Virus genome (UHGV): UHGV-0106476
DNA: 31,719 nt
Origin: a virus
Reading direction: 5' to 3' (one strand)
A program made the translations under genes and the position numbers. The notes under the pieces were generated by a model. It made no database searches, was not told the origin of the DNA, and saw only the letters and a list, made by a program, of their open reading frames with translations. Position 1 is the stretch's first letter. Each line of letters begins with the position of its first letter. Shown in pieces: positions 2,775 through 17,333 of this stretch.

Positions 2775-3379
2775 TAAGCAGCAGCTCCTTCTAATTCGTC
2801 TCGTCTGATGTTGTAAACGTCCTGCGCTTTGTGCTGCTCCGGTGTGCCTTCGAGCATCTTCCACGCTTTGGCGAACGCCTGTTTAAGCTCTTCTACGGTG
2901 TTTTTCTGCATTGCTGCGTCAGTGAATGCTTTTAGAACCTGTTCAGGTGTAGGTGATGGTTTTGATTGCTTTGCTGCTGCGTTCTGCTGATGTTTATGCT
3001 CGTCTGTATCTGCATCTTTCGCATCATCAATGCCGAACAAACCATTGAGGCAATACTTGCGTGCATAAGAGCTTGTAGCTCCCGTAACTTGTGCAGAATC
3101 CATTCCTTTCTTGCTTTCTTCCTCTCGTGCAAGAGCGGTTGCCGTATGACTGTTTTCGCCATCGGTAATAGTTGCCGTGGCTTTCACGTAATACCGATCA
3201 CCAATCAACACAACTTCATCGCTGATTGATAAAAACAGACCATTCAGTAACGGCTTAACGCCTTCAAGAATATCTTCGCAGCTTCTGTATTTATATTTAC
3301 CGAATGAGTTGTACTGATTTTTTGGCGCGTTCAGATTCTCCTGAATAGCTGCCAGTCTTGCGTAAAATTCTTTGCTCAT
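2774..3379 (-). CDS. erf: Erf-family single-strand annealing recombinase
   Basis: 201 aa from the ATG at 3377-3379 (MSKEFYARLAAIQENLNAPKNQYNSFGKYKYRSCEDILEG...), recalled as close to P22 Erf. The ORF track's longer form begins at an upstream TTG. Confidence 0.8.
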   Translation of the reverse strand: MSKEFYARLAAIQENLNAPKNQYNSFGKYKYRSCEDILEGVKPLLNGLFLSISDEVVLIGDRYYVKATATITDGENSHTATALAREEESKKGMDSAQVTGATSSYARKYCLNGLFGIDDAKDADTDEHKHQQNAAAKQSKPSPTPEQVLKAFTDAAMQKNTVEELKQAFAKAWKMLEGTPEQHKAQDVYNIRRDELEGAAA

Positions 3380-3389
3380 ATGTTTGTTC

Positions 3390-3560
3390 TCAGAATGGAC
3401 ATTCCCCAAGGAAATAACGCTGATTTAAAACTTCGACTCTGGACAAATTAAGGCATACCCGCATTCCTTCGCGATCGCCATTATGGCGATACCAGAGAGC
3501 TTTCTGCGTGTACATGCGTCTCTGTAACTTGCTCTCCTTCACTGTGGTTGCAAGTGACAT
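3390..3560 (-). CDS. small ORF between kil and erf (Arf-like position), candidate A
   Basis: 56 codons, ATG at 3558-3560 with GGAG about 6 nt upstream. Overlaps candidate B in another frame; only one is likely real. Confidence 0.3.
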   Translation of the reverse strand: MSLATTVKESKLQRRMYTQKALWYRHNGDREGMRVCLNLSRVEVLNQRYFLGECPF

Positions 3561-3639
3561 GAATATCTCCTTCGTTACCGATTAATTCTTTCATCTGACG
3601 AATGAATTCTTCGTCTGACCAGTTATCTGTAAAACTCAT
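3481..3639 (-). CDS. small ORF between kil and erf (Arf-like position), candidate B
   Basis: 52 codons (MSFTDNWSDEEFIRQMKELIGNEG...); its ATG overlaps the kil stop (ATGA). Alternative to candidate A. Confidence 0.3.
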   Translation of the reverse strand: MSFTDNWSDEEFIRQMKELIGNEGDIHVTCNHSEGEQVTETHVHAESSLVSP

Positions 3640-3788
3640 TTCCTGCGATACCACGGAAGGTTGATAGCTGATTTCATCGCTTTATTTGCTTCAAACCACA
3701 TTTTGGAATCACCAATAAATCTGGCTATTACTGCTTTGTTCTGTGCAGCACGAAGCATCTGGTGATTGATGGCTATTTCATTGCGCAT
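3636..3788 (-). CDS. kil: Kil-like host cell-division (FtsZ) inhibitor
   Basis: 50-aa ORF MRNEIAINHQMLRAAQNKAVIARFIGDSKMWFEANKAMKSAINLPWYRRK, with the FIGD-x-KM core recalled from lambda/P22 Kil; sits directly downstream of cIII as in lambda. Confidence 0.6.
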   Translation of the reverse strand: MRNEIAINHQMLRAAQNKAVIARFIGDSKMWFEANKAMKSAINLPWYRRK

Positions 3789-3904
3789 AATAAGACCTCA
3801 ACTCTTTTCCATCCGTCACGTAATTTACGGGTGATTCGTTCAAGTAAAGATTCATTTAGTTGGAAGGCACCCATGCGAGCGCCTCCCGCGATTGCGTAAA
3901 TCAT
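3773..3904 (-). CDS. cIII: CIII (FtsH inhibitor stabilising CII)
   Basis: 43-aa ORF MIYAIAGGARMGAFQLNESLLERITRKLRDGWKRVEVLLCAMK; the ESLLERITRKLRDGWKR segment matches the conserved core of lambda CIII. Below the ORF-track length cutoff. Confidence 0.8.
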   Translation of the reverse strand: MIYAIAGGARMGAFQLNESLLERITRKLRDGWKRVEVLLCAMK

Positions 3905-3927
3905 GGGTGGTTCCTTATGTTGGTTTA

Positions 3928-4896
3928 TTAGTAGGTTATTTTTGTTGCGAATACTTCGCCTTTTACGATGGCTGTTATGATATTTTTAGCAACATCTTCT
4001 GATGCGCCAACCTTGATAAGGTCAGCAAGTATTTTGTTATTTACTTCTTTCCGGTGAGCTTTATCCTTTGCTCTACGCTCTTCTTCGTCCTTGATTCTTT
4101 TTTCTTCTGCTATTCTGGCTTGCTCTTTTGCTTCAGCCTCGCGCCGGATTCGTTCAGCCTCCTCCTGTGCTTTTCGGCGTTCTGCTTCAATTGCCGCCTG
4201 CTTTTCTCTTTCAGCTCGTTCTGCTGCCTCTTTTGCTTCGCGCTGTGCTCGTTGCTCGGCTTCAATGCGTTCACGCTCTGCACGTTCCGCTGCGGCCTTA
4301 GCTTCTGCTTCTCGCCTTGCTGCTGCTTCAATTTCGGCTTTTGCCTTTGCTTCGGCTTCTGCTCTGGCTTTCTCTTCAGCTTCTCTTTTTAAGCGTTCTT
4401 CATGCTCTCGCTTTTCCTGCTCCGCTTTGAGTCTTGCCTCTTCTCTTTGGCGGTCAAATTCGCGATCCATCAAAATAGCTATTTCATGGTCAGACTCAAT
4501 TTGCTTTGCGAGAGCTTCAGCTGCTGCCTTAGCTTCTTCTTCGGCTTTAATCCGTGCCTGTTCCTCCTCATAATCAGTAAGAGGCTGGCGTGCCTTGGAT
4601 TTCAGCTCATCAAGGCGATCACGCACTGTCTTGCGGTTGGCATCAATTAGCTTTGGAATTTCCTTCAGTTCAGCAACAAGGTCTTTTCCAAGACCATCGA
4701 GATATGTTTTCGTCTGCGCAACTTTATACGCCAGAGAAGCGATCTCCTTTCTGCCCTTTGCCGTTGTGATATCAGGCACAAAGGACATAACTTCACGTTC
4801 AACCTTTTGAAGGATTTCTTCAATCTGGTCGGCAGACTGAAATACAGTCATTGCATTTGCTTTTTCAATAACAACTAAATCTGTTACTTCACTCAT
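3928..4896 (-). CDS. hypothetical protein with long E/A/K/R-rich charged helical repeat region
   Basis: 322-aa ORF: globular N-terminus, about 150 aa of EAKAxAE/RREAE-type repeats, then a short C-terminal domain (NKILADLIKVGASEDVAKNIITAIVKGEVFATKITY). Confidence 0.6.
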   Translation of the reverse strand: MSEVTDLVVIEKANAMTVFQSADQIEEILQKVEREVMSFVPDITTAKGRKEIASLAYKVAQTKTYLDGLGKDLVAELKEIPKLIDANRKTVRDRLDELKSKARQPLTDYEEEQARIKAEEEAKAAAEALAKQIESDHEIAILMDREFDRQREEARLKAEQEKREHEERLKREAEEKARAEAEAKAKAEIEAAARREAEAKAAAERAERERIEAEQRAQREAKEAAERAEREKQAAIEAERRKAQEEAERIRREAEAKEQARIAEEKRIKDEEERRAKDKAHRKEVNNKILADLIKVGASEDVAKNIITAIVKGEVFATKITY

Positions 4897-5029: not shown

Positions 5030-5218
5030 TTATTCGTCATGCATTTCAGGTAATTCTTCGTATTCGACGCCCCATACGAGTTTACACCAACTAACTCGCT
5101 CATATCTTTTACAAAAATCAGACCACATAACTTGGGTTCCATCATGGTTTGTTATTACTTCTGTAATATCACCAACACTAACAAAACTGGTATTAGAAGC
5201 AGTTATTTTTACTTTCAT
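5030..5218 (-). CDS. hypothetical protein (AT-rich accessory block)
   Basis: 62-aa ORF; start overlaps the upstream stop (TAATG); low-GC local composition by eye. Confidence 0.45.
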   Translation of the reverse strand: MKVKITASNTSFVSVGDITEVITNHDGTQVMWSDFCKRYERVSWCKLVWGVEYEELPEMHDE

Positions 5219-5514
5219 TACTTATCCCCAAGAGCTTTTCTGATTGCTGCAAGACCTTTATTAACAGCTCCATACCATTCTGGATATGTTGTCGTTGTTC
5301 TATTTTTGGATTGCTTAAGTAATAACTGAAGTGCTTCGAGAAGGTCAGGTGCTGCCGCTATTAGATTGGCATCTTCAATGCATTGAACTTCCTCACAGAT
5401 TGCAATATACGAACGCCAGCCTGCGCCATTTTCAAGTGAGTCTGCCTGGATTATTTTAATCTCATCGCCATCCATCATTATTTCCCACTTACCTTCAGTA
5501 CCTTTAAATTCCAT
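5218..5514 (-). CDS. hypothetical protein (AT-rich accessory block)
   Basis: 98-aa ORF, ATG at 5512-5514 with AGAGGA RBS. Confidence 0.5.
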   Translation of the reverse strand: MEFKGTEGKWEIMMDGDEIKIIQADSLENGAGWRSYIAICEEVQCIEDANLIAAAPDLLEALQLLLKQSKNRTTTTYPEWYGAVNKGLAAIRKALGDK

Positions 5515-5535
5515 GTTATCCTCTGTTGTTTATGC

Positions 5536-5562
5536 CAAAAATAAAGGCCGACTATGCGGCCT
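5536..5562 (-). terminator. putative intrinsic terminator between the 156-aa and 98-aa genes
   Basis: Minus-strand hairpin (stems 5545-5550 and 5557-5562, 6-nt loop) followed by UUUAUUUUUG; overlaps the 156-aa gene stop. Confidence 0.4.
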
Positions 5563-6031
5563 AGTAGAATACCCAATTTTCTGTTTCTTGGTTGTGTCCA
5601 AAGTTATATTCAATATCTGGTGTTGATGTATCAATATTCTTCATCCCATCAACAAGAGTTGATACAACAGCCAAATCTTGTTTGATTCTCATCAAATGGT
5701 ATTTCTTCCGGCGCAATAAACTTTCAATGGCAAGTTTCTTCGTTGGGAATGCAAAAGATCTTTCTGCATTTTTTGCTACTTTCTTAATTGCATATCTATT
5801 TCTCCTTTGTTTCCATTCCTGTAACCACTGATTTGGTGCTGGTTTAAAATTAACAATCCAATGCGCAGGAACCAACCATGCATAATGCTCTGTCTGATGA
5901 AAAGCTATATATTGAAGTGCGAATATTTTGATTCCATCTTCTTCAACTGTCGCTTGGAATCTCCAGAAAACAGGCATTCCATCATGTTCAGTTTCTGATT
6001 CAGGAAAAGGTACGCTCCATGATTTTGTCAT
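5561..6031 (-). CDS. hypothetical protein (AT-rich accessory block)
   Basis: 156-aa ORF, ATG at 6029-6031 with GAGGTGAG RBS; soluble, Trp/His-rich, no motif recognised. Confidence 0.55.
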   Translation of the reverse strand: MTKSWSVPFPESETEHDGMPVFWRFQATVEEDGIKIFALQYIAFHQTEHYAWLVPAHWIVNFKPAPNQWLQEWKQRRNRYAIKKVAKNAERSFAFPTKKLAIESLLRRKKYHLMRIKQDLAVVSTLVDGMKNIDTSTPDIEYNFGHNQETENWVFY

Positions 6032-6093
6032 ATCTCACCTCAAATAAGTGGTTTGCTGCCAAAACAATGAACCATCCGGAAATTCCAGATAGT

Positions 6094-6318
6094 TCATAAT
6101 TCACTCTTCAATACTTCCAACTTACTAATCGCCGATAGATATCCGCGCTGATAGGGCATCATCACTCCTTCGAGCTTGCCACTTCTTAACTCCTCCCTGA
6201 GCAATTGTATTGCTTGATCAATAACCTCTGCCTTAGCGTCCTTTATGGCTTGCTTGCGGGGCTTTGCTTTCTGCTTTGGCAGATTTCTCAAGCATGATGG
6301 AATGTATGTCTGATTCAT
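6094..6318 (-). CDS. hypothetical small basic protein immediately downstream of N
   Basis: 74 aa from the ATG at 6316-6318 (MNQTYIPSCLRNLPKQKAKPRK...), GAGGTAAG RBS; the ORF track's extra codon is a GTG. Confidence 0.5.
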   Translation of the reverse strand: MNQTYIPSCLRNLPKQKAKPRKQAIKDAKAEVIDQAIQLLREELRSGKLEGVMMPYQRGYLSAISKLEVLKSEL

Positions 6319-6321
6319 CAC

Positions 6322-6594
6322 TTACCTCGCTGTCAGTTGTTTTGATTTCCGGTAGCCTGCCGCGTAAAGAGCTACGTTTGGCAGGCAAATACTTCCACTG
6401 CATTCATCTGCCTTCTTGCAGCGAAGGCTTCCGAGTGATGCTGCTTTGTCTGCTCTGACGCAACCAGAGAGCTTTAGCGCAATTTTTCGCGCCAGTCGCT
6501 GCTCTTGCATTGCCTGTTCACGTTGAGCCTGTCTGCGTGCTCTGCGGCGATTTCTGGCGTTATCGTCAGCCAGATATGTAATGACTACTGTCAT
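6322..6594 (-). CDS. N: N-type transcription antiterminator
   Basis: 90-aa ORF with an N-terminal arginine-rich motif (NARNRRRARRQAQREQ) and a C-terminus (LPNVALYAAGYRKSKQLTAR) recalled as close to P22 gp24; sits downstream of pL and nutL. Confidence 0.75.
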   Translation of the reverse strand: MTVVITYLADDNARNRRRARRQAQREQAMQEQRLARKIALKLSGCVRADKAASLGSLRCKKADECSGSICLPNVALYAAGYRKSKQLTAR

Positions 6595-6701
6595 GTTGAC
6601 CTCCGATGATTGACTTTGGCGGTGACGCGCCGGGTGCTTATCTTCCGGTTGCCGTCGTGCAGCTGCACTTCACGTCACCCCAAAGCCAACTACTCTTTGG
6701 T

Positions 6702-6743
6702 TCCCGCATTTCGGCGGGACAATCCCATCAATGTTAAAGAGCC
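6702..6743 (-). promoter_or_regulatory. nutL: nutL (boxA and boxB)
   Basis: Minus-strand boxB UCCCGC-CGAAAU-GCGGGA at 6702-6719, identical to the hairpin at 8399-8416; boxA-like GGCTCTTTAACA at 6732-6743, 12 nt upstream. Confidence 0.7.
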
Positions 6744-6788
6744 TGCCAATCTGTTCCGTTTGGCTACCAGCGTCCTGCTGATGGCTAA

Positions 6789-6830
6789 AGAATACTGTAG
6801 GTATTTTATTGTGTAAATACCCAAGGTATT
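6789..6830 (-). promoter_or_regulatory. pL promoter with OL operators
   Basis: Minus-strand -35 TTTACA (6812-6817), 17-nt spacer, -10 TATTCT (6789-6794). Operator-like 15-mers AATACTGTAGGTATT (6791-6805) and AATACCCAAGGTATT (6816-6830); a weaker third site at 6861-6875. Confidence 0.55.
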
Positions 6831-6962
6831 TATTTTTGGTGAAATAATGATAAGCAAATGAATACAAAGGATATTTATTTTTTTCGGTGTCTGCTTGTTC
6901 AGTGCTTTTTATGCGGGATATGTGAAGTGGATCCCGATAGCTATTGCTGCCGGGATTATGGG

Positions 6963-7331
6963 TTAGTCAGCGAAGGTTAAGACGAGAATTACCTTAATGA
7001 TGTCTGCTACAACAGACACGGCCATAGATAAACCAAAGACAATCCAAGCCATAGAGATGTCTTCACTACCATCGTATAGAGTTCCGTAATCACTGGTGTA
7101 AGGCGTAAATGTCGCGCCTTGATACAATAGGTATAAGCTTGATCCATAGAGGAAAAATGCAGATATCCCTTGTATTGCCATGATCACCAGAATCATGAAA
7201 CGAGCTGATCTATGCGCCCAAGCCTGGCTTATTTTTTCTGATAGAGATTTCGCAATAAAAGCATGCGCTAAGCCGTAAATTGTCGAGATTGCCAACATCC
7301 CAAAAAAGCTTGCTATAGCGGTTCCAACCAT
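6963..7331 (-). CDS. small three-TM membrane protein in the rex position downstream of cI
   Basis: 122 aa from the ATG at 7329-7331 (MVGTAIASFFGMLAISTIYGLAHAFIA...) with AAGGGG RBS, 17 nt after the cI stop; three hydrophobic segments. The ORF track's longer form starts at a TTG. Confidence 0.6.
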   Translation of the reverse strand: MVGTAIASFFGMLAISTIYGLAHAFIAKSLSEKISQAWAHRSARFMILVIMAIQGISAFFLYGSSLYLLYQGATFTPYTSDYGTLYDGSEDISMAWIVFGLSMAVSVVADIIKVILVLTFAD

Positions 7332-7348
7332 AAGCGCCCCTTGCGTGA

Positions 7349-8065
7349 TCAAACCAGCCTTAGTTTTGTCTCAATTGCAACGCCTATAATCTTGCAGTTT
7401 CCATTGATTGGCACGAGAGGCCATGCAGGGTTAAGTCCCTTGAGGTATTTATTTCCGCCGTCGATTATCAGCTTCTTGAATGTTGCTTCGTTAGAGTCAG
7501 AAAGTTTTGCTATGACCAAGCTGCCGTTGATCGCCTCCCTTCCGGTATCGAAAAGAACGAATGTTCCCTCTGGAATGCTTAACCCAACCGGTGCCGTCAT
7601 TGAATCACCTTCCACTTTAAGCCAAAACGCATTACCTTGAATATGCGCGTCAGACTCAAGCCAAACATCTATGTCTTTAATGGTGTATGGTTCGCATGCT
7701 TCACACCACGAGCCAGCCTGGATACTGCTTAACACCGGATACCTCTTTCCTGCTCTGTATTCCCCTGCATACCTTACGTTGGCATCGCTCTTAAGGCTTT
7801 CTGCCTGTTCTGCAACCTTGGCAGCAATTGACTGGCTAAAATCAGCAATTGAGACTTGCAATAATCGTGCAAAACCAGATGCAACCTCAACGTTTAGCGC
7901 ATTTCTGCCATTAAGATAATGCCCTACCGCTCCTTGGGTGATACCCAGTTCATCAGCGATTGAGTATTGGGTTATTCCCAATTCTTTCTTTTTTGACTCA
8001 TACAAAGCCTTAAGCCGCTTAGCGTCTTCGAGCTGTTCTGTCGTCAGTGATTTTTTATTTTCCAT
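7349..8065 (-). CDS. cI: CI repressor (HTH plus LexA-type S24 autopeptidase domain)
   Basis: 238 aa with an N-terminus resembling lambda CI (LTTEQLEDAKRLKALYESKKKELGITQ), an EGDSM Ser motif and a C-terminal catalytic-Lys region (FKKLIIDGG); divergent from cro. Confidence 0.9.
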   Translation of the reverse strand: MENKKSLTTEQLEDAKRLKALYESKKKELGITQYSIADELGITQGAVGHYLNGRNALNVEVASGFARLLQVSIADFSQSIAAKVAEQAESLKSDANVRYAGEYRAGKRYPVLSSIQAGSWCEACEPYTIKDIDVWLESDAHIQGNAFWLKVEGDSMTAPVGLSIPEGTFVLFDTGREAINGSLVIAKLSDSNEATFKKLIIDGGNKYLKGLNPAWPLVPINGNCKIIGVAIETKLRLV

Positions 8066-8100
8066 AGCTTAATTCTAATAGCTAAGGTACTTAAACTAAA

Positions 8101-8142
8101 AATACCCTGAGTATTGATTGCCTTGAATACCTGTAGTATTCT
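8101..8142 (+). promoter_or_regulatory. PR promoter with OR operators
   Basis: -35 TTGATT (8114-8119), 17-nt spacer, -10 TATTCT (8137-8142). Operators AATACCCTGAGTATT (8101-8115) and AATACCTGTAGTATT (8126-8140), the same family as OL. GGAGAG RBS at 8161-8166 precedes cro. Confidence 0.55.
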
Positions 8143-8171
8143 TTGTTCATGGTTAATAACGGAGAGTGCAT

Positions 8172-8366
8172 ATGATTCGAATGACACTTGCCGATTACGC
8201 CAAAATCCATGGACAGGCTAAAGCAGCCAGTGACTTTGGTGTAATCCAGTGCGCTATCAGCAAGGCCATTCTGGCAGGCCGTAACATCATGGTTACGGTA
8301 AAGCCTGATGGCAGTGTGATTGGAGAGGAAGTTCGTCCTTTCCCAAGCAACAAGAAAAACAAATAG
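8172..8366 (+). CDS. cro: Cro repressor
   Basis: 64 aa from the ATG at 8172 ([64 protein letters not shown]), closely resembling lambda Cro. The ORF track's start is an upstream GTG. Confidence 0.85.
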
Positions 8367-8372
8367 TAACAC

Positions 8373-8416
8373 CGCTCTTTAACAGTCATGGTCCTCATTC
8401 CCGCCGAAATGCGGGA
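8373..8416 (+). promoter_or_regulatory. nutR: nutR (boxA and boxB)
   Basis: boxA CGCTCTTTAACA at 8373-8384; boxB TCCCGC-CGAAAT-GCGGGA at 8399-8416, identical to nutL boxB. Confidence 0.7.
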
Positions 8417-8474
8417 ATACAACGCGCATAAGTTGATGCGCATAACTTCTTATTAGTTAAGGAAATACTTACAT

Positions 8475-8753
8475 ATGCAACTTACAAGTACTCGCAAGAA
8501 AGCGAATGCAATTACAAGCAACATCCTGAATCGAATTGCTGTACGTGGTCAGCGAAAGGTTGCCGACGCGTTAGGGATTAATGAATCGCAAATTTCGCGA
8601 TGGAAAGACAGCTTCATCCCAAAAATGGGAATGCTTCTGGCTGTTCTTGAATGGGGTGTTGAAGACGAGGAGTTGGCGGAACTGGCTAAGAAAGTAGCCA
8701 GAATGCTGACAAAAGAAAAAGCCCCGAAGAACGGCGAATTCTTCGAGGCCTAA
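8475..8753 (+). CDS. cII: CII transcriptional activator
   Basis: 92-aa ORF; NESQISRWKDSFIPKMGMLLAVLEWGV matches the lambda CII core (KSQISRWKRDWIPKFSMLLAVLEWGV). Confidence 0.85.
   Translation: MQLTSTRKKANAITSNILNRIAVRGQRKVADALGINESQISRWKDSFIPKMGMLLAVLEWGVEDEELAELAKKVARMLTKEKAPKNGEFFEA
8508..8521 (-). promoter_or_regulatory. CII-binding site of a pRE-like promoter
   Basis: Minus-strand TTGC-TTGTAA-TTGC (TTGC-N6-TTGC) inside the 5' end of cII, the same arrangement as lambda pRE. Confidence 0.55.
8711..8749 (-). terminator. OOP-like antisense RNA terminator overlapping the 3' end of cII
   Basis: Minus-strand 10-bp stem (one G-U) with 9-nt loop followed by UUUUUCUUUU (8711-8720); convergent with cII, as for lambda oop. 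A candidate -10 (CATAAT, reverse complement of 8785-8790) lies about 60-70 nt upstream. Confidence 0.5.
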
Positions 8754-13916: not shown

Positions 13917-14565
13917 TGGCAGCAAATACCGAAATATTTGGGTAGTTGGCGATCTGCACGGATGCTACACGAACCTGACGAAAAAACTGGAGACGATAGG
14001 ATTCGACACCAAAAAAGACCTGCTTATCTCGGTTGGCGATTTGGTCGATCGCGGTACAGAGAACGTCGAATGTCTGGAATTAATCACATTCCCCTGGTTC
14101 CGAGCTGTACGTGGAAACCATGAGCAAATGATGATTGATGGCTTATCAGAGCGTGGAAACGTTAATCACTGGCTGCTTAATGGCGGTGGCTGGTTCTTCA
14201 ATCTCGATTACGACAAAGAAATTCTGGCTAAAGCTCTTGCCCATAAAGCAGAAGAACTTCCGTTAATCATCGAACTGGTGAGCAAAGGTAAAAAATATGT
14301 CATCTGCCACGCCGATTATCCTTGTGACGAATACGAGTTTGGAAAGCCTGTTGATCATCAGCAGGTAATCTGGAACCGCGAACGAATCAGCAACTCACAA
14401 GACGGGATCGTGAAAGAAATAAAAGGCGCGGACACGTTCATCTTTGGTCATACGCCAGCAGTGAAACCACTCAAGTTTGCCAACCAGATGTATATCGATA
14501 CCGGCGCAGTGTTCTGCGGAAACCTCACATTGATTCAGGTACAGGGAGAAGGCGCATGGGCATAA
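13894..14565 (+). CDS. ninI: serine/threonine protein phosphatase (lambda NinI-type)
   Basis: 221 aa from the ATG at 13894 ([24 protein letters not shown]...), with metallophosphatase motifs GDLHG, GDLVDRG and GNHE; GGAG RBS. Confidence 0.85.
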
Positions 14566-15074
14566 GAGAACTAAACCTCACCAAAGAGCAGCACGAGTGG
14601 CTGAATGGCTGGCTTGAACTGTGGGGCGCATGGGTTTATTCAGGTCGTCTGGAAAAGCGCATGAGCAGCGTAATAGCGAAGTTCATGGAGAGCGTAGAGC
14701 CGGGAAGAGTTATGACAAGGCCAATGTGTAATGATGATGATGGAATGTTGATTTCTCAGGTCGTCGATTCCGTCATGTACATTGACAAGAAAGCCTTTGG
14801 CATCCTCCTCAGCTACTACGCTCATGGTTCATCAAAGCGAGCAATTGCATCCTACTATCACGCGACTGCAAAGCCACGCAAGATGTGTGGACGTGGTGGC
14901 GAGGGATGGAGAAAACCTTCACTGGCAACCTGTAGAAACGAAATTGACGACATCCTGAAATCGTCGTTATTTGTTTTGTACCAACCAATGCAAAATGCTT
15001 TCAAAATGCGTAAACGTGTTGAGAAAGTTAAGCATGTTGCTGTTAAAAGCCTTGACATGCAATTAGCCATTTAG
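14556..15074 (+). CDS. Q: Q-type late-gene antiterminator
   Basis: 172-aa ORF between ninI and the late promoter/lysis genes; LELWGAW and [10 protein letters not shown] segments resemble recalled Q proteins of the P22 gp23 / phage 82 type. Call is by synteny plus partial recollection. Confidence 0.6.
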
Positions 15075-15351: not shown

Positions 15352-15861
15352 ATGCTTTTAACAAGTGAACGCATTAAAGAATCTTTGTCATTTAATCCAT
15401 CTACCGGCATCTTCGTGTGGAAGGTAAAAACAGGAAGATCTAAGCCTGGCATGATTGCTGGTTCGCTGAATTCGTTCGGTTACAGGCAAATATCTTTAGG
15501 AGGTAAAAGATACTTTGCTCATCGTCTGGCGTGGATTTTGTGCAATGGCGAAATAAATAGCGGCTTAGAAATAGATCATGTGAATGGCATAAGAGACGAC
15601 AACAGGATATCAAATCTTAGGATTGTTAGCAGATCGCAAAACAACATGAACACAATAACCTCGAAAAGGAACCGGTCTGGTTGTCGTGGTGTTTGTTTCC
15701 ACTCGAGAGATAGGCTTTGGCATGCTCGTGTTTTTGTTAATAGAAAAACTGCGGCCTTCAAGACATTTAAACGCAAAGAGGATGCTATAAAATTTGTGAC
15801 TTCGGAAAGGGAAAAAATATTCGGAAGTTACAACAAGAATTGTGGTGAATGCGCAGGCTGA
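15352..15861 (+). CDS. HNH homing-type endonuclease with C-terminal AP2 DNA-binding domain
   Basis: 169 aa with an HNH_3-like core (KRYFAHRLAWILCNG...IDHVNGIRDDNRISNLRIVSRSQNNMN) and an AP2-like C-terminus (GCRGVCFHSRDRLWHARVFVNRKTAAFKTFKRKEDAIKFV). Confidence 0.7.
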   Translation: MLLTSERIKESLSFNPSTGIFVWKVKTGRSKPGMIAGSLNSFGYRQISLGGKRYFAHRLAWILCNGEINSGLEIDHVNGIRDDNRISNLRIVSRSQNNMNTITSKRNRSGCRGVCFHSRDRLWHARVFVNRKTAAFKTFKRKEDAIKFVTSEREKIFGSYNKNCGECAG

Positions 15862-16190: not shown

Positions 16191-16394
16191 ATGTACCGTA
16201 TGGACAAAATCAGAGAATGGTTCAGTTACAGCTTCGGAGGACTGACTGCGATGGGTGGCATTCTCTCCCTGAATGACTGGGCTGTCATCATTGGTATTCT
16301 TTGTACTGTCGGCACATTTGGCATCAACTGGTACTACAAGCGCAAAGAGCGCGAGGACAGATTGAATGGCAATGTCACCGGCACTACGAAATAG
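16191..16394 (+). CDS. class II holin (S21-like pinholin) with dual-start motif
   Basis: 67-aa [13 protein letters not shown]... with Met1/Met4 dual starts, two hydrophobic segments and a charged C-terminus; directly upstream of a SAR endolysin. Confidence 0.7.
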
Positions 16395-16869
16395 CGTAAT
16401 AGCGGCGATAAGTGGCGGGGCTATTGCTATAGCATCTGTGTTAATCACTGGACCAAGTGGTAACGATGGTCTGGAAGGTGTCAGCTACATACCATACAAA
16501 GATATTGTTGGTGTATGGACTGTATGTCACGGACACACCGGAAAAGACATCATGCTCGGTAAAACGTATACCGAAGCAGAATGCAAAGCTCTCCTGAATA
16601 AAGACCTTGCCACGGTCGCCAGACAAATTAACCCGTACATCAAAGTCGATATACCGGAAACAACGCGCGGCGCTCTTTACTCGTTCGTCTACAACGTTGG
16701 TGCTGGCAATTTCAGAACATCGACGCTTCTTCGCAAAATCAACCAGGGCGATATCAAAGGTGCATGTGATCAGTTACGTCGTTGGACATACGCTGGCGGT
16801 AAGCAATGGAAAGGGCTGATGACCCGTCGTGATATTGAGCGAGAGGTCTGTTTGTGGGGGCAACAATGA
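16366..16869 (+). CDS. SAR endolysin (phage lysozyme, GH24, R21-like)
   Basis: N-terminal Gly/Ala-rich signal-anchor-release segment ([19 protein letters not shown]) followed by a lysozyme E-x8-D-x5-T catalytic triad ([16 protein letters not shown]); recalled as near-identical to phage 21 R. Confidence 0.85.
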
Positions 16870-17333
16870 GCAGAGTAACCGCGATTATCTCCGCTCTGGT
16901 TATCTGCATCATCGTCTGCCTGTCATGGGCTGTTAATCATTACCGTGATAACGTCATCGCCTACAAAGAACAGCGAGATAAAAAAGTCAGTGAGCTGAAG
17001 CAGGCGACCGCCACCATTACTGACATGCAGCAGCGCCAGCGTTCTGCTGATGCACTCGATGCTAAATACACGAAGGAGTTAGCTGATGCGAAAGCTGAAA
17101 ATGATGCTCTTCGGCGCAAGCTTGATAATGGCGGCAGGGTGCTCGTCAAAGGAAAATGCCCTGTGCCATCCTCAGCCGAAACCTCCGGCGCCTCCGGCAT
17201 GGGCAATGATGCCACCGTCGAACTCTCTCCAGTTGCTGGACGAAACGTTCTCGGTGTCCGGGACGGAATTATCCGCGACCAAACAGCACTGAGAACGCTT
17301 CAGGAATACATCAGGACGCAATGCCTTCGATGA
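16866..17333 (+). CDS. Rz: Rz i-spanin
   Basis: 155 aa with an N-terminal TM segment and coiled-coil periplasmic domain; ATGA overlap with the endolysin stop; Rz1 is embedded in the +1 frame. Confidence 0.8.
17086..17292 (+). CDS. Rz1: Rz1 o-spanin lipoprotein (embedded in Rz)
   Basis: 68 aa [21 protein letters not shown]... with a lipobox and proline-rich mature region, fully inside Rz in another frame. Confidence 0.8.

Follow-up and report, generated by a model that had tools for sequence, protein, structure and literature searches.

The gene hkaS, which lies immediately behind the cI repressor gene in the virus genome UHGV-0106476, very probably encodes a genuine inner-membrane protein of the cI operon, and the protein family to which it belongs is a strict and true orphan. 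The DNA analyzed, hereafter referred to as the window, is a stretch of 31,719 nucleotides, in which hkaS occupies positions 6963–7331 on the minus strand and specifies 122 residues with three predicted transmembrane (TM) segments, an assignment backed by a match to PHROG 6534, by dN/dS values, and by an AlphaFold2 model. Part of this is not new, as an annotation of the gene dates from 2001, copies of it are common in prophages of E. coli, and the slot that it occupies is a recognized hotspot. What is added here is the strict orphan status of the family, a linkage to cI and a transcript-end structure that are both invariant over lineages and immunity types, and a robust predicted topology together with defined invariant residues that can be used for mutagenesis. 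With respect to function, analogy with known systems suggests that the protein (HkaS) may have some anti-phage role at the inner membrane, for which we regard the chances as about even.

The start codon of hkaS is the ATG at 7331 and its stop codon the TAA at 6965–6963. From the TGA stop of cI (7351–7349), a minus-strand spacer of 17 nt, TCACGCAAGGGGCGCTT (7332–7348), leads to this ATG and carries the Shine–Dalgarno-like site AAGGGG (7342–7337) 5 nt upstream of it. The first-pass annotation had pointed out this arrangement, an open reading frame (ORF) on the cI strand, 17 nt past the cI stop and with its own AAGGGG, and the letters confirm it; the claim that the ORF ends short of pL/OL, in the slot that holds rexAB in lambda, is also correct, with 87 nt separating the end of the gene from the nearest operator site. 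On the other hand, the span proposed at that time extended to 7352, which corresponds to a 129-aa form with a TTG start taken from the mechanical ORF list, and this had to be revised. Because all homologues align from the methionine of the ATG, and one of them has an in-frame TAA immediately 5′ of it, the TTG form was dismissed and the 122-aa form is regarded as the gene. The region had further been described as AT-rich relative to cI, which holds in direction but is only a marginal difference, since GC amounts to 42.0% in the hkaS ORF as against 45.2% in cI and 48.3% in the window. Both in the window and in the annotation of phage HK620, hkaS is the sole ORF on its strand between cI and OL.

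The neighboring elements are those of an immunity region. The cI gene (7349–8065, minus strand) encodes a 238-aa repressor with HTH_3 (PF01381, 8e-10) and Peptidase_S24 (PF00717, 5e-24) domains, and cro (8166–8366) and cII (8475–8753) are located to its right. Between cI and cro, two right-operator palindromes, AATACCCTGAGTATT (8101–8115) and AATACCTGTAGTATT (8126–8140), sit in the pRM/pR region, in agreement with the OR/pR annotation of HK620. They match three operator-like palindromes, AATACnnnnnGTATT, at 6861–6875, 6816–6830, and 6791–6805, which together with a pL-like promoter (TTTACA-17-TATTCT, 6817–6789) make up the minus-strand OL/pL region (6789–6875), annotated as OL1–3 and pL in HK620. 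The window thus holds five operator-like sites, and five or more were reached in none of 100 shuffles. The left edge of the slot is formed by the first gene of the pL operon, which encodes the 90-aa antiterminator N (6322–6594, minus strand; N_peptide PF25694, 5e-16; PHROG 271). An Rfam scan of positions 6200–8600 gave no meaningful match.

Downstream of hkaS, 9 nt past its stop codon, the minus strand can form the RNA hairpin AUCCCGGCAGCAAUAGCUAUCGGGAU (6931–6956; −13.7 kcal/mol), which lacks a U tract. Its stability is unusual (z −3.4), since equally stable folds were found in none of 200 shuffles, and it is a candidate for the 3′ end of the cI–hkaS transcript, equivalent to tIMM; the HK620 record places tIMM, OL1–3, and pL between hkaS and nutL. 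In four other lineages, stable hairpins of differing sequence occur at the same position after the hkaS stop (z −2.1 to −4.6), making five lineages in all, and in a sixth, a Buttiauxella locus, hkaS is followed by a canonical terminator composed of a hairpin and U7. These structures agree with transcription stopping between hkaS and pL, as it would have to if harmful read-through from pRM into the pL operon is to be avoided. No terminator-like site was found on the minus strand from pRM to the end of hkaS, the cI–hkaS junction included. Given the tight linkage, the lack of an intervening terminator, and the hairpin past hkaS, co-transcription from the repressor promoter is the natural reading, and we infer from this anatomy that pRM drives hkaS in lysogens and that pRE does so while lysogeny is being established. 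The literature searched on HK620, mEpX2, HK630, HK140, and repressor-linked exclusion yielded neither expression nor phenotype data, and no paper was found on the hkaS of HK620.

The name of the gene comes from the HK620 record of 2001 (AF335538), in which an ORF whose product is 95.8% identical to that of the window is annotated as hkaS, "unknown". At 96–100% identity, the gene is present in 16 phage records and in 146 (~2.7%) of the 5,426 E. coli genomes that are complete, where all copies are chromosomal and labeled as hypothetical protein. Over 1.9 kb, the immunity region of the window is 98.8–99.1% identical to those of HK620, mEpX2, HK630, HK140, and HF4s, and the same range applies to phi296/phi367, 611R6, and two Stx2c phages. 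Elsewhere the window is mosaic and P22-like (Lederbergvirus), with phiv205-1 and CUS-3 as the closest phages.

The cI–hkaS module has been found in four virion lineages, represented by HK620 (Lederbergvirus), HK630 (Lambdavirus), HK140 (Hendrixvirinae), and phi296 (Sepvirinae), and therefore hkaS travels with immunity rather than with virion type. Among IMG/VR loci whose cI is at least 87% identical to that of the window, hkaS is present wherever the contig reaches, that is, in 64 loci comprising 63 near-identical alleles and the divergent L073; one additional contig (L040) stops at cI. In 16 loci with cI 76–78% identical, the slot carries different cargo or a gene on the reverse strand, in P22 it is empty, and in lambda it contains rexAB. 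Such variability is in line with the cI–N interval being a known mosaic hotspot that houses rexAB and bstA (Owen et al. 2021, PMC8585504). Linkage is retained among more distant relatives, in which HkaS is 52–83% identical and the gene always begins 17–22 nt past a cI-type (HTH plus S24) repressor gene, is preceded by a spacer with an AAGGA or GAGGG Shine–Dalgarno-like site, and is followed by a hairpin and then by OL/pL and N. Even in the Buttiauxella prophage hkaS still stands behind cI, despite an identity of just 60% for that cI and operator-region repeats that differ by eye.

A linkage that persists down to 60% cI identity could point to a function for the prophage itself, such as maintenance or lysis control, with HkaS damping leaky holin activity or lysis in lysogens or tying the state of the membrane to induction, and the holin-like topology of the protein would agree with this. 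Nevertheless, we consider such a role very improbable, since a complete lysis cassette (holin, 16191–16394; endolysin; Rz) is encoded elsewhere in the window, the holin and lysis modules differ in type among the four hkaS-bearing virion lineages, HF4s is viable with a truncated allele, and P22, with its empty slot, and relatives with other cargo do without hkaS. That HkaS is the holin of the phage was rejected as well, on account of the separate cassette at 16191–17333, which includes the holin gene at 16191–16394.

Outside its own family, HkaS has no detectable relatives. PHROG 6534, whose function is unknown, is the sole PHROG family found (E 2.3e-78, residues 1–122 of 122 covered). A word-indexed search of 5.8 billion proteins returned 12 clusters, all from Enterobacterales (E. 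coli, Salmonella, Hafnia, and Enterobacter) and with every named member called hypothetical, and a profile search of all 1.84 billion representatives recovered the family itself and one 44-aa fragment, nothing else. Among 185,579 species-representative genomes there is a single hkaS locus, that of Buttiauxella. No match to HkaS was found in Pfam (E up to 1) or NCBIfam (E up to 10), no family of PADLOC-DB v2 matches it at E up to 10, and a sequence search of the PDB produced no matches. When the structural model was compared with the PDB and BFVD by Foldseek, none of the hits fell below E 0.3 and only generic helical bundles were retrieved. The impression of the first-pass annotation that the protein has no recognizable motif thus stands against Pfam, NCBIfam, and PADLOC, and the remote homology and structure search that it had recommended, carried out here with profiles, hhalign, and Foldseek, revealed no relative of known or housekeeping function.

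The topology prediction recommended on the same occasion gave three TM segments in an N-out, C-in orientation, and the three hydrophobic helices originally noted in the 122-aa product are evident from both hydropathy and the structural model. By hydropathy, the hydrophobic segments span residues of about 3–27, 44–70, and 94–121. The AlphaFold2 model, built on an alignment of eight sequences (mean pLDDT 89.5), consists of three long helices, a short cytoplasmic helix (31–38), and a small periplasmic β-hairpin (78–86). Loop 1 (28–44) is basic in all homologues, with a net charge of +3 to +5, loop 2 (71–93) is acidic and rich in tyrosine, with a net charge of −1 to −4, and the N-terminus is devoid of basic residues. 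On the basis of these loop charges and the non-basic N-terminus, the positive-inside rule places the N-terminus outside and the C-terminus inside, so that the predicted topology comprises a periplasmic N-terminus, a cytoplasmic loop 28–44, a periplasmic loop 71–93, and a cytoplasmic C-terminus. A cleavable signal peptide in TM1 (A-H-A, 22–24) was considered and rejected, because a basic n-region is missing, the motif is not conserved, and the next loop is basic. With loops of just 17 and 23 residues, HkaS has hardly any soluble surface.

Conservation within the family is concentrated on the cytoplasmic side. About 36 residues, along with length and topology, are invariant down to 52% identity; those invariant in six sequences include K33, I34, Q36, W38, H40, A43-R44-F45, Y-x-L-Y (67–70), D110, K113, and the C-terminal LTFAD, the C-terminus as a whole reading ...ILVLTFAD with a net charge of −1. 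In terms of mean pairwise identity, the best-kept parts are the cytoplasmic loop (0.66) and the cytoplasm-side half of TM3 with the tail (0.77), and conservation is lowest in the periplasmic loop (0.46). Such a pattern would fit a conserved host partner and thus a lysogenic-conversion factor unrelated to defense, which would act on a transporter of the host inner membrane or on a stress response, or would confer tolerance to membrane toxins such as pore-forming bacteriocins, and thereby give lysogens an advantage in the gut. Anything of use to a lysogen could sensibly be expressed from the repressor operon, and hkaS is confined to prophages of Enterobacterales; moreover, immunity proteins for E1-type pore-forming colicins and small transporter regulators may be similar to HkaS in size and three-TM build. 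In our estimation a conversion factor is nonetheless rather unlikely: at E up to 1–10, Pfam and NCBIfam offer no immunity-protein or regulator family for HkaS, the known occupants of the slot are anti-phage systems, and weak short-range constraint and occasional truncation, described below, speak against a strongly beneficial role of the housekeeping type.

The extent to which hkaS is under selection depends on the distance over which it is assessed. In unsaturated comparisons, to which the estimate is restricted, its dN/dS is 0.135–0.205, against 0.03 for cI of the same loci, and its dN is 4–5 times that of cI; values of 0.14–0.2 are the reason for regarding hkaS as coding. Within 49 near-identical modules, the variable codons are 22 nonsynonymous and 12 synonymous in hkaS versus 6 and 23 in cI. 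Judged from these codon counts, the excess of nonsynonymous polymorphism relative to divergence probably indicates weak constraint and not demonstrable positive selection, and diversifying selection or an arms race acting on hkaS was set aside as unsupported for the same reason. All 63 IMG/VR loci that carry the gene keep an uninterrupted frame of 122 codons. Truncated alleles do occur, among others in HF4s, and the viability of this phage implies that hkaS is dispensable for lytic growth.

Another reading is that hkaS is a near-neutral or decaying passenger, a membrane-inserting ORF of little present function that is dragged along with the immunity region. The 22:12 ratio set against 6:23 in cI, the truncated alleles, and the orphan status of a family present in 1 of 185,579 species-representative genomes would all be expected of such a gene. 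Yet dN/dS at longer distances is 0.14–0.2, the frame is complete in each of the 63 loci, the length, topology, and ~36 residues do not change down to 52% identity, and every lineage has kept the gene at its place, along with a ribosome-binding site and a hairpin behind it, which makes a mere passenger highly improbable.

The explanation that we favor is exclusion at the membrane, which the first-pass annotation had raised alongside abortive infection and which is a reasonable reading resting on the hotspot position of hkaS and on analogy to small membrane exclusion proteins. According to this proposal, hkaS would be an accessory gene of the immunity module that is co-transcribed with cI, in lysogens from pRM and in the establishment phase from pRE, and that uses a ribosome-binding site of its own. 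The product would form a three-helix bundle in the inner membrane, N out and C in, and shield the lysogen against other phages at the cytoplasmic membrane. It may do so by disturbing the inner-membrane step of the ejection or tape-measure conduit of an incoming phage; alternatively, its target may be a host inner-membrane factor used by that conduit. A block of genome entry is preferred because HkaS is nearly all membrane-embedded with small loops and has no partner gene, and because characterized minimal membrane proteins of such build (P22 SieA, T4 Imm, and HK97 gp15) work in this way; the scant soluble surface is likewise easier to reconcile with a blocker at the membrane than with a sensor in the cytoplasm. 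Still, this being an analogy, a specific block of genome entry is possible but doubtful. Several observations weigh against exclusion, as HkaS matches no known exclusion or defense protein by sequence, profile, or fold, short-range constraint is weak, and alleles are truncated in HF4s and elsewhere. Against an entry block in particular, the cytoplasm-facing parts are the best conserved, which is not obviously what one would expect of a blocker acting on the conduit from the periplasmic side, and hkaS follows immunity, whereas sieA in P22 adjoins the ejection genes.

An anti-phage protein at the membrane could also act as an abortive-infection effector. In that case, HkaS would be quiescent in the lysogen and open or disrupt the membrane upon heterologous infection, with a Rex-like loss of membrane potential, such that the infected cell dies or is arrested before phage release; given that there is no partner gene, HkaS itself would have to sense a phage membrane protein. 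The slot is shared with the abortive systems rexAB and bstA, the layout resembles that of class I holins in having three TM segments in an N-out/C-in arrangement, the invariant intramembrane D110 and K113 together with LTFAD hint at a specific intramembrane contact or gating, and hkaS moves, like rexAB, with the immunity region and not with virion type. We nevertheless find abortive infection distinctly unlikely, considering that a sensor partner is absent, with hkaS the sole ORF between cI and OL, that the protein is nearly devoid of a soluble domain for sensing, that there is no likeness to RexB or any PADLOC model, and that a pore-former made constitutively would need tight control, of which there is no hint. 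More specifically, HkaS could be a self-contained sensor–effector of 122 residues that is embedded in the inner membrane, recognizes a membrane-inserted component of a heterologous phage (ejection protein, tape-measure tip, or holin), and collapses the membrane potential, an idea that we consider improbable; it would amount to a one-protein, Rex-like abortive system lacking a cytoplasmic sensor, in a family without detectable relatives.

The gene is of interest because few phage genes are expressed in every lysogen, those co-transcribed with the repressor being among them, and because the cI–N interval has already been the source of RexAB and BstA. Carriers of hkaS include Stx-phage backgrounds and the laboratory phages HK620, mEpX2, HK630, and HK140. 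Should HkaS turn out to be an exclusion factor that acts at the membrane as a single gene product, it would represent a new sequence family among minimal injection blockers or abortive effectors and would bear on the prediction of phage host range and on phage therapy against E. coli. Were it instead a conversion factor without a role in defense, it would provide a counter-example to the view of this slot as a "defense hotspot".

Among known systems, lambda RexB, a small multi-pass inner-membrane protein (PMC8585504), is comparable in the slot between cI and OL/pL, in strand, and presumably in the use of the pRM transcript. It differs in length, with 144 aa versus the 122 aa and three predicted TM segments of HkaS, and HkaS has no RexA-like partner; the hhalign probability for the pair is 0.56%. 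BstA of prophage BTP1 is strongly expressed in lysogens and mediates abortive infection (PMC8585504). Both bstA and the 933W gene for Stk resemble hkaS in being single-gene cargo right behind the repressor of lambdoid or P22-like prophages. Work by Friedman et al. 2011 reportedly found that Stk, at the same position in 933W, excludes HK97. BstA, which associates with DNA, and Stk, a kinase, are both soluble and cytoplasmic, and the all-membrane HkaS shares neither sequence nor architecture with them.

Two very small membrane proteins, T4 Imm and HK97 gp15, each suffice to block genome entry at the inner membrane. They differ from HkaS in genomic position, and T4 Imm is from a virulent phage; a tblastn search of all phage records with HkaS retrieved hkaS only and nothing related to either of them. 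Class I holins of the lambda S type have the N-out/C-in topology, and HkaS is predicted to be similar to them in this respect, in its three TM segments, and in a size of ~100–120 aa. It departs from them in having no basic cytoplasmic C-terminal tail (it ends in ...LTFAD) and in being encoded outside the lysis cassette (16191–17333), and the PHROG search gave no significant holin match.

Comparison with P22 yielded hhalign probabilities of 0.29% for SieA and 0.11% for SieB. SieA, an inner-membrane protein that the prophage expresses, has three predicted TM segments, lacks a signal sequence, and blocks DNA injection on its own (PMC10883804). It is larger (162–164 aa) and has a cytoplasmic FxRYPxEAxxFNK motif (PMC10883804) that is absent from HkaS, and sieA has its own promoter beside the ejection-protein genes instead of standing behind the repressor. 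The likeness is in build, given that HkaS, too, is predicted to be a small inner-membrane protein with three TM segments and no signal peptide.

The membrane-protein gene hkaS, which lies directly behind the cI repressor gene, is followed by a stable hairpin 9-22 nt beyond its stop codon in every lineage compared, namely at 6931..6956 (-) in the window and, in five related cI loci, at 1832-1859 (L008), 5381-5421 (L002), 5383-5412 (L006), 3612-3633 (L073), and about 1890-1915 (L095, a prophage on the Buttiauxella sp. contig CBCPKK010000004.1). The sequence of these hairpins varies between lineages, and among the six copies only that of Buttiauxella is followed by a canonical U tract. The arrangement suggests a position-conserved element that either marks the transcript end or stabilizes the RNA. 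The transcript end annotated in the record of phage HK620, tIMM, is situated further downstream than the hairpin, and its transcribed strand carries an A-run, not a U-run. The third left operator differs in position from this record: its best palindrome, AATACAAAGGATATT (6861..6875, one mismatch), is about 20 nt away from the HK620-annotated OL3, which corresponds to about 6837..6853 in the window.

HkaS alleles that are about 52-61% identical are paired in some loci with cI genes 86-88% identical, and the Buttiauxella allele, within the same range, is linked to a cI of 60% identity; the histories of cI and hkaS are therefore partly uncoupled, through either recombination at the junction or saturated divergence of HkaS. 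The interval between cI and the left operator carries other cargo in prophages whose cI is 76-78% identical. L084 and L089 have three ORFs of 141, 205, and 159 aa (3334-4862) with their own promoter-like region, and the 205-aa ORF contains an HTH-like segment and two CxxC pairs and is MqsA-like in appearance. L074 harbors an acidic 131-aa ORF (3516-3911), and L077, L083, and L087 carry a terminator and then a reverse-strand gene (from 3215).

Elsewhere in the window, the pL operon encodes a 322-aa protein (3928..4896, (-); PHROG 1376, unknown function) with a very long, coiled-coil-like central region rich in Glu, Ala, Lys, and Arg, and the adjoining ORFs (5030-6321) all match PHROGs of unknown function. 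In the late region, a 169-aa HNH endonuclease ORF (15352..15861, (+); PHROG 99, E 6e-61) follows the gene for the antiterminator Q (14556..15074) and precedes the lysis cassette of holin, endolysin, and Rz (16191..17333); this position is the late-promoter accessory-gene slot, the one occupied by stx in Stx phages.
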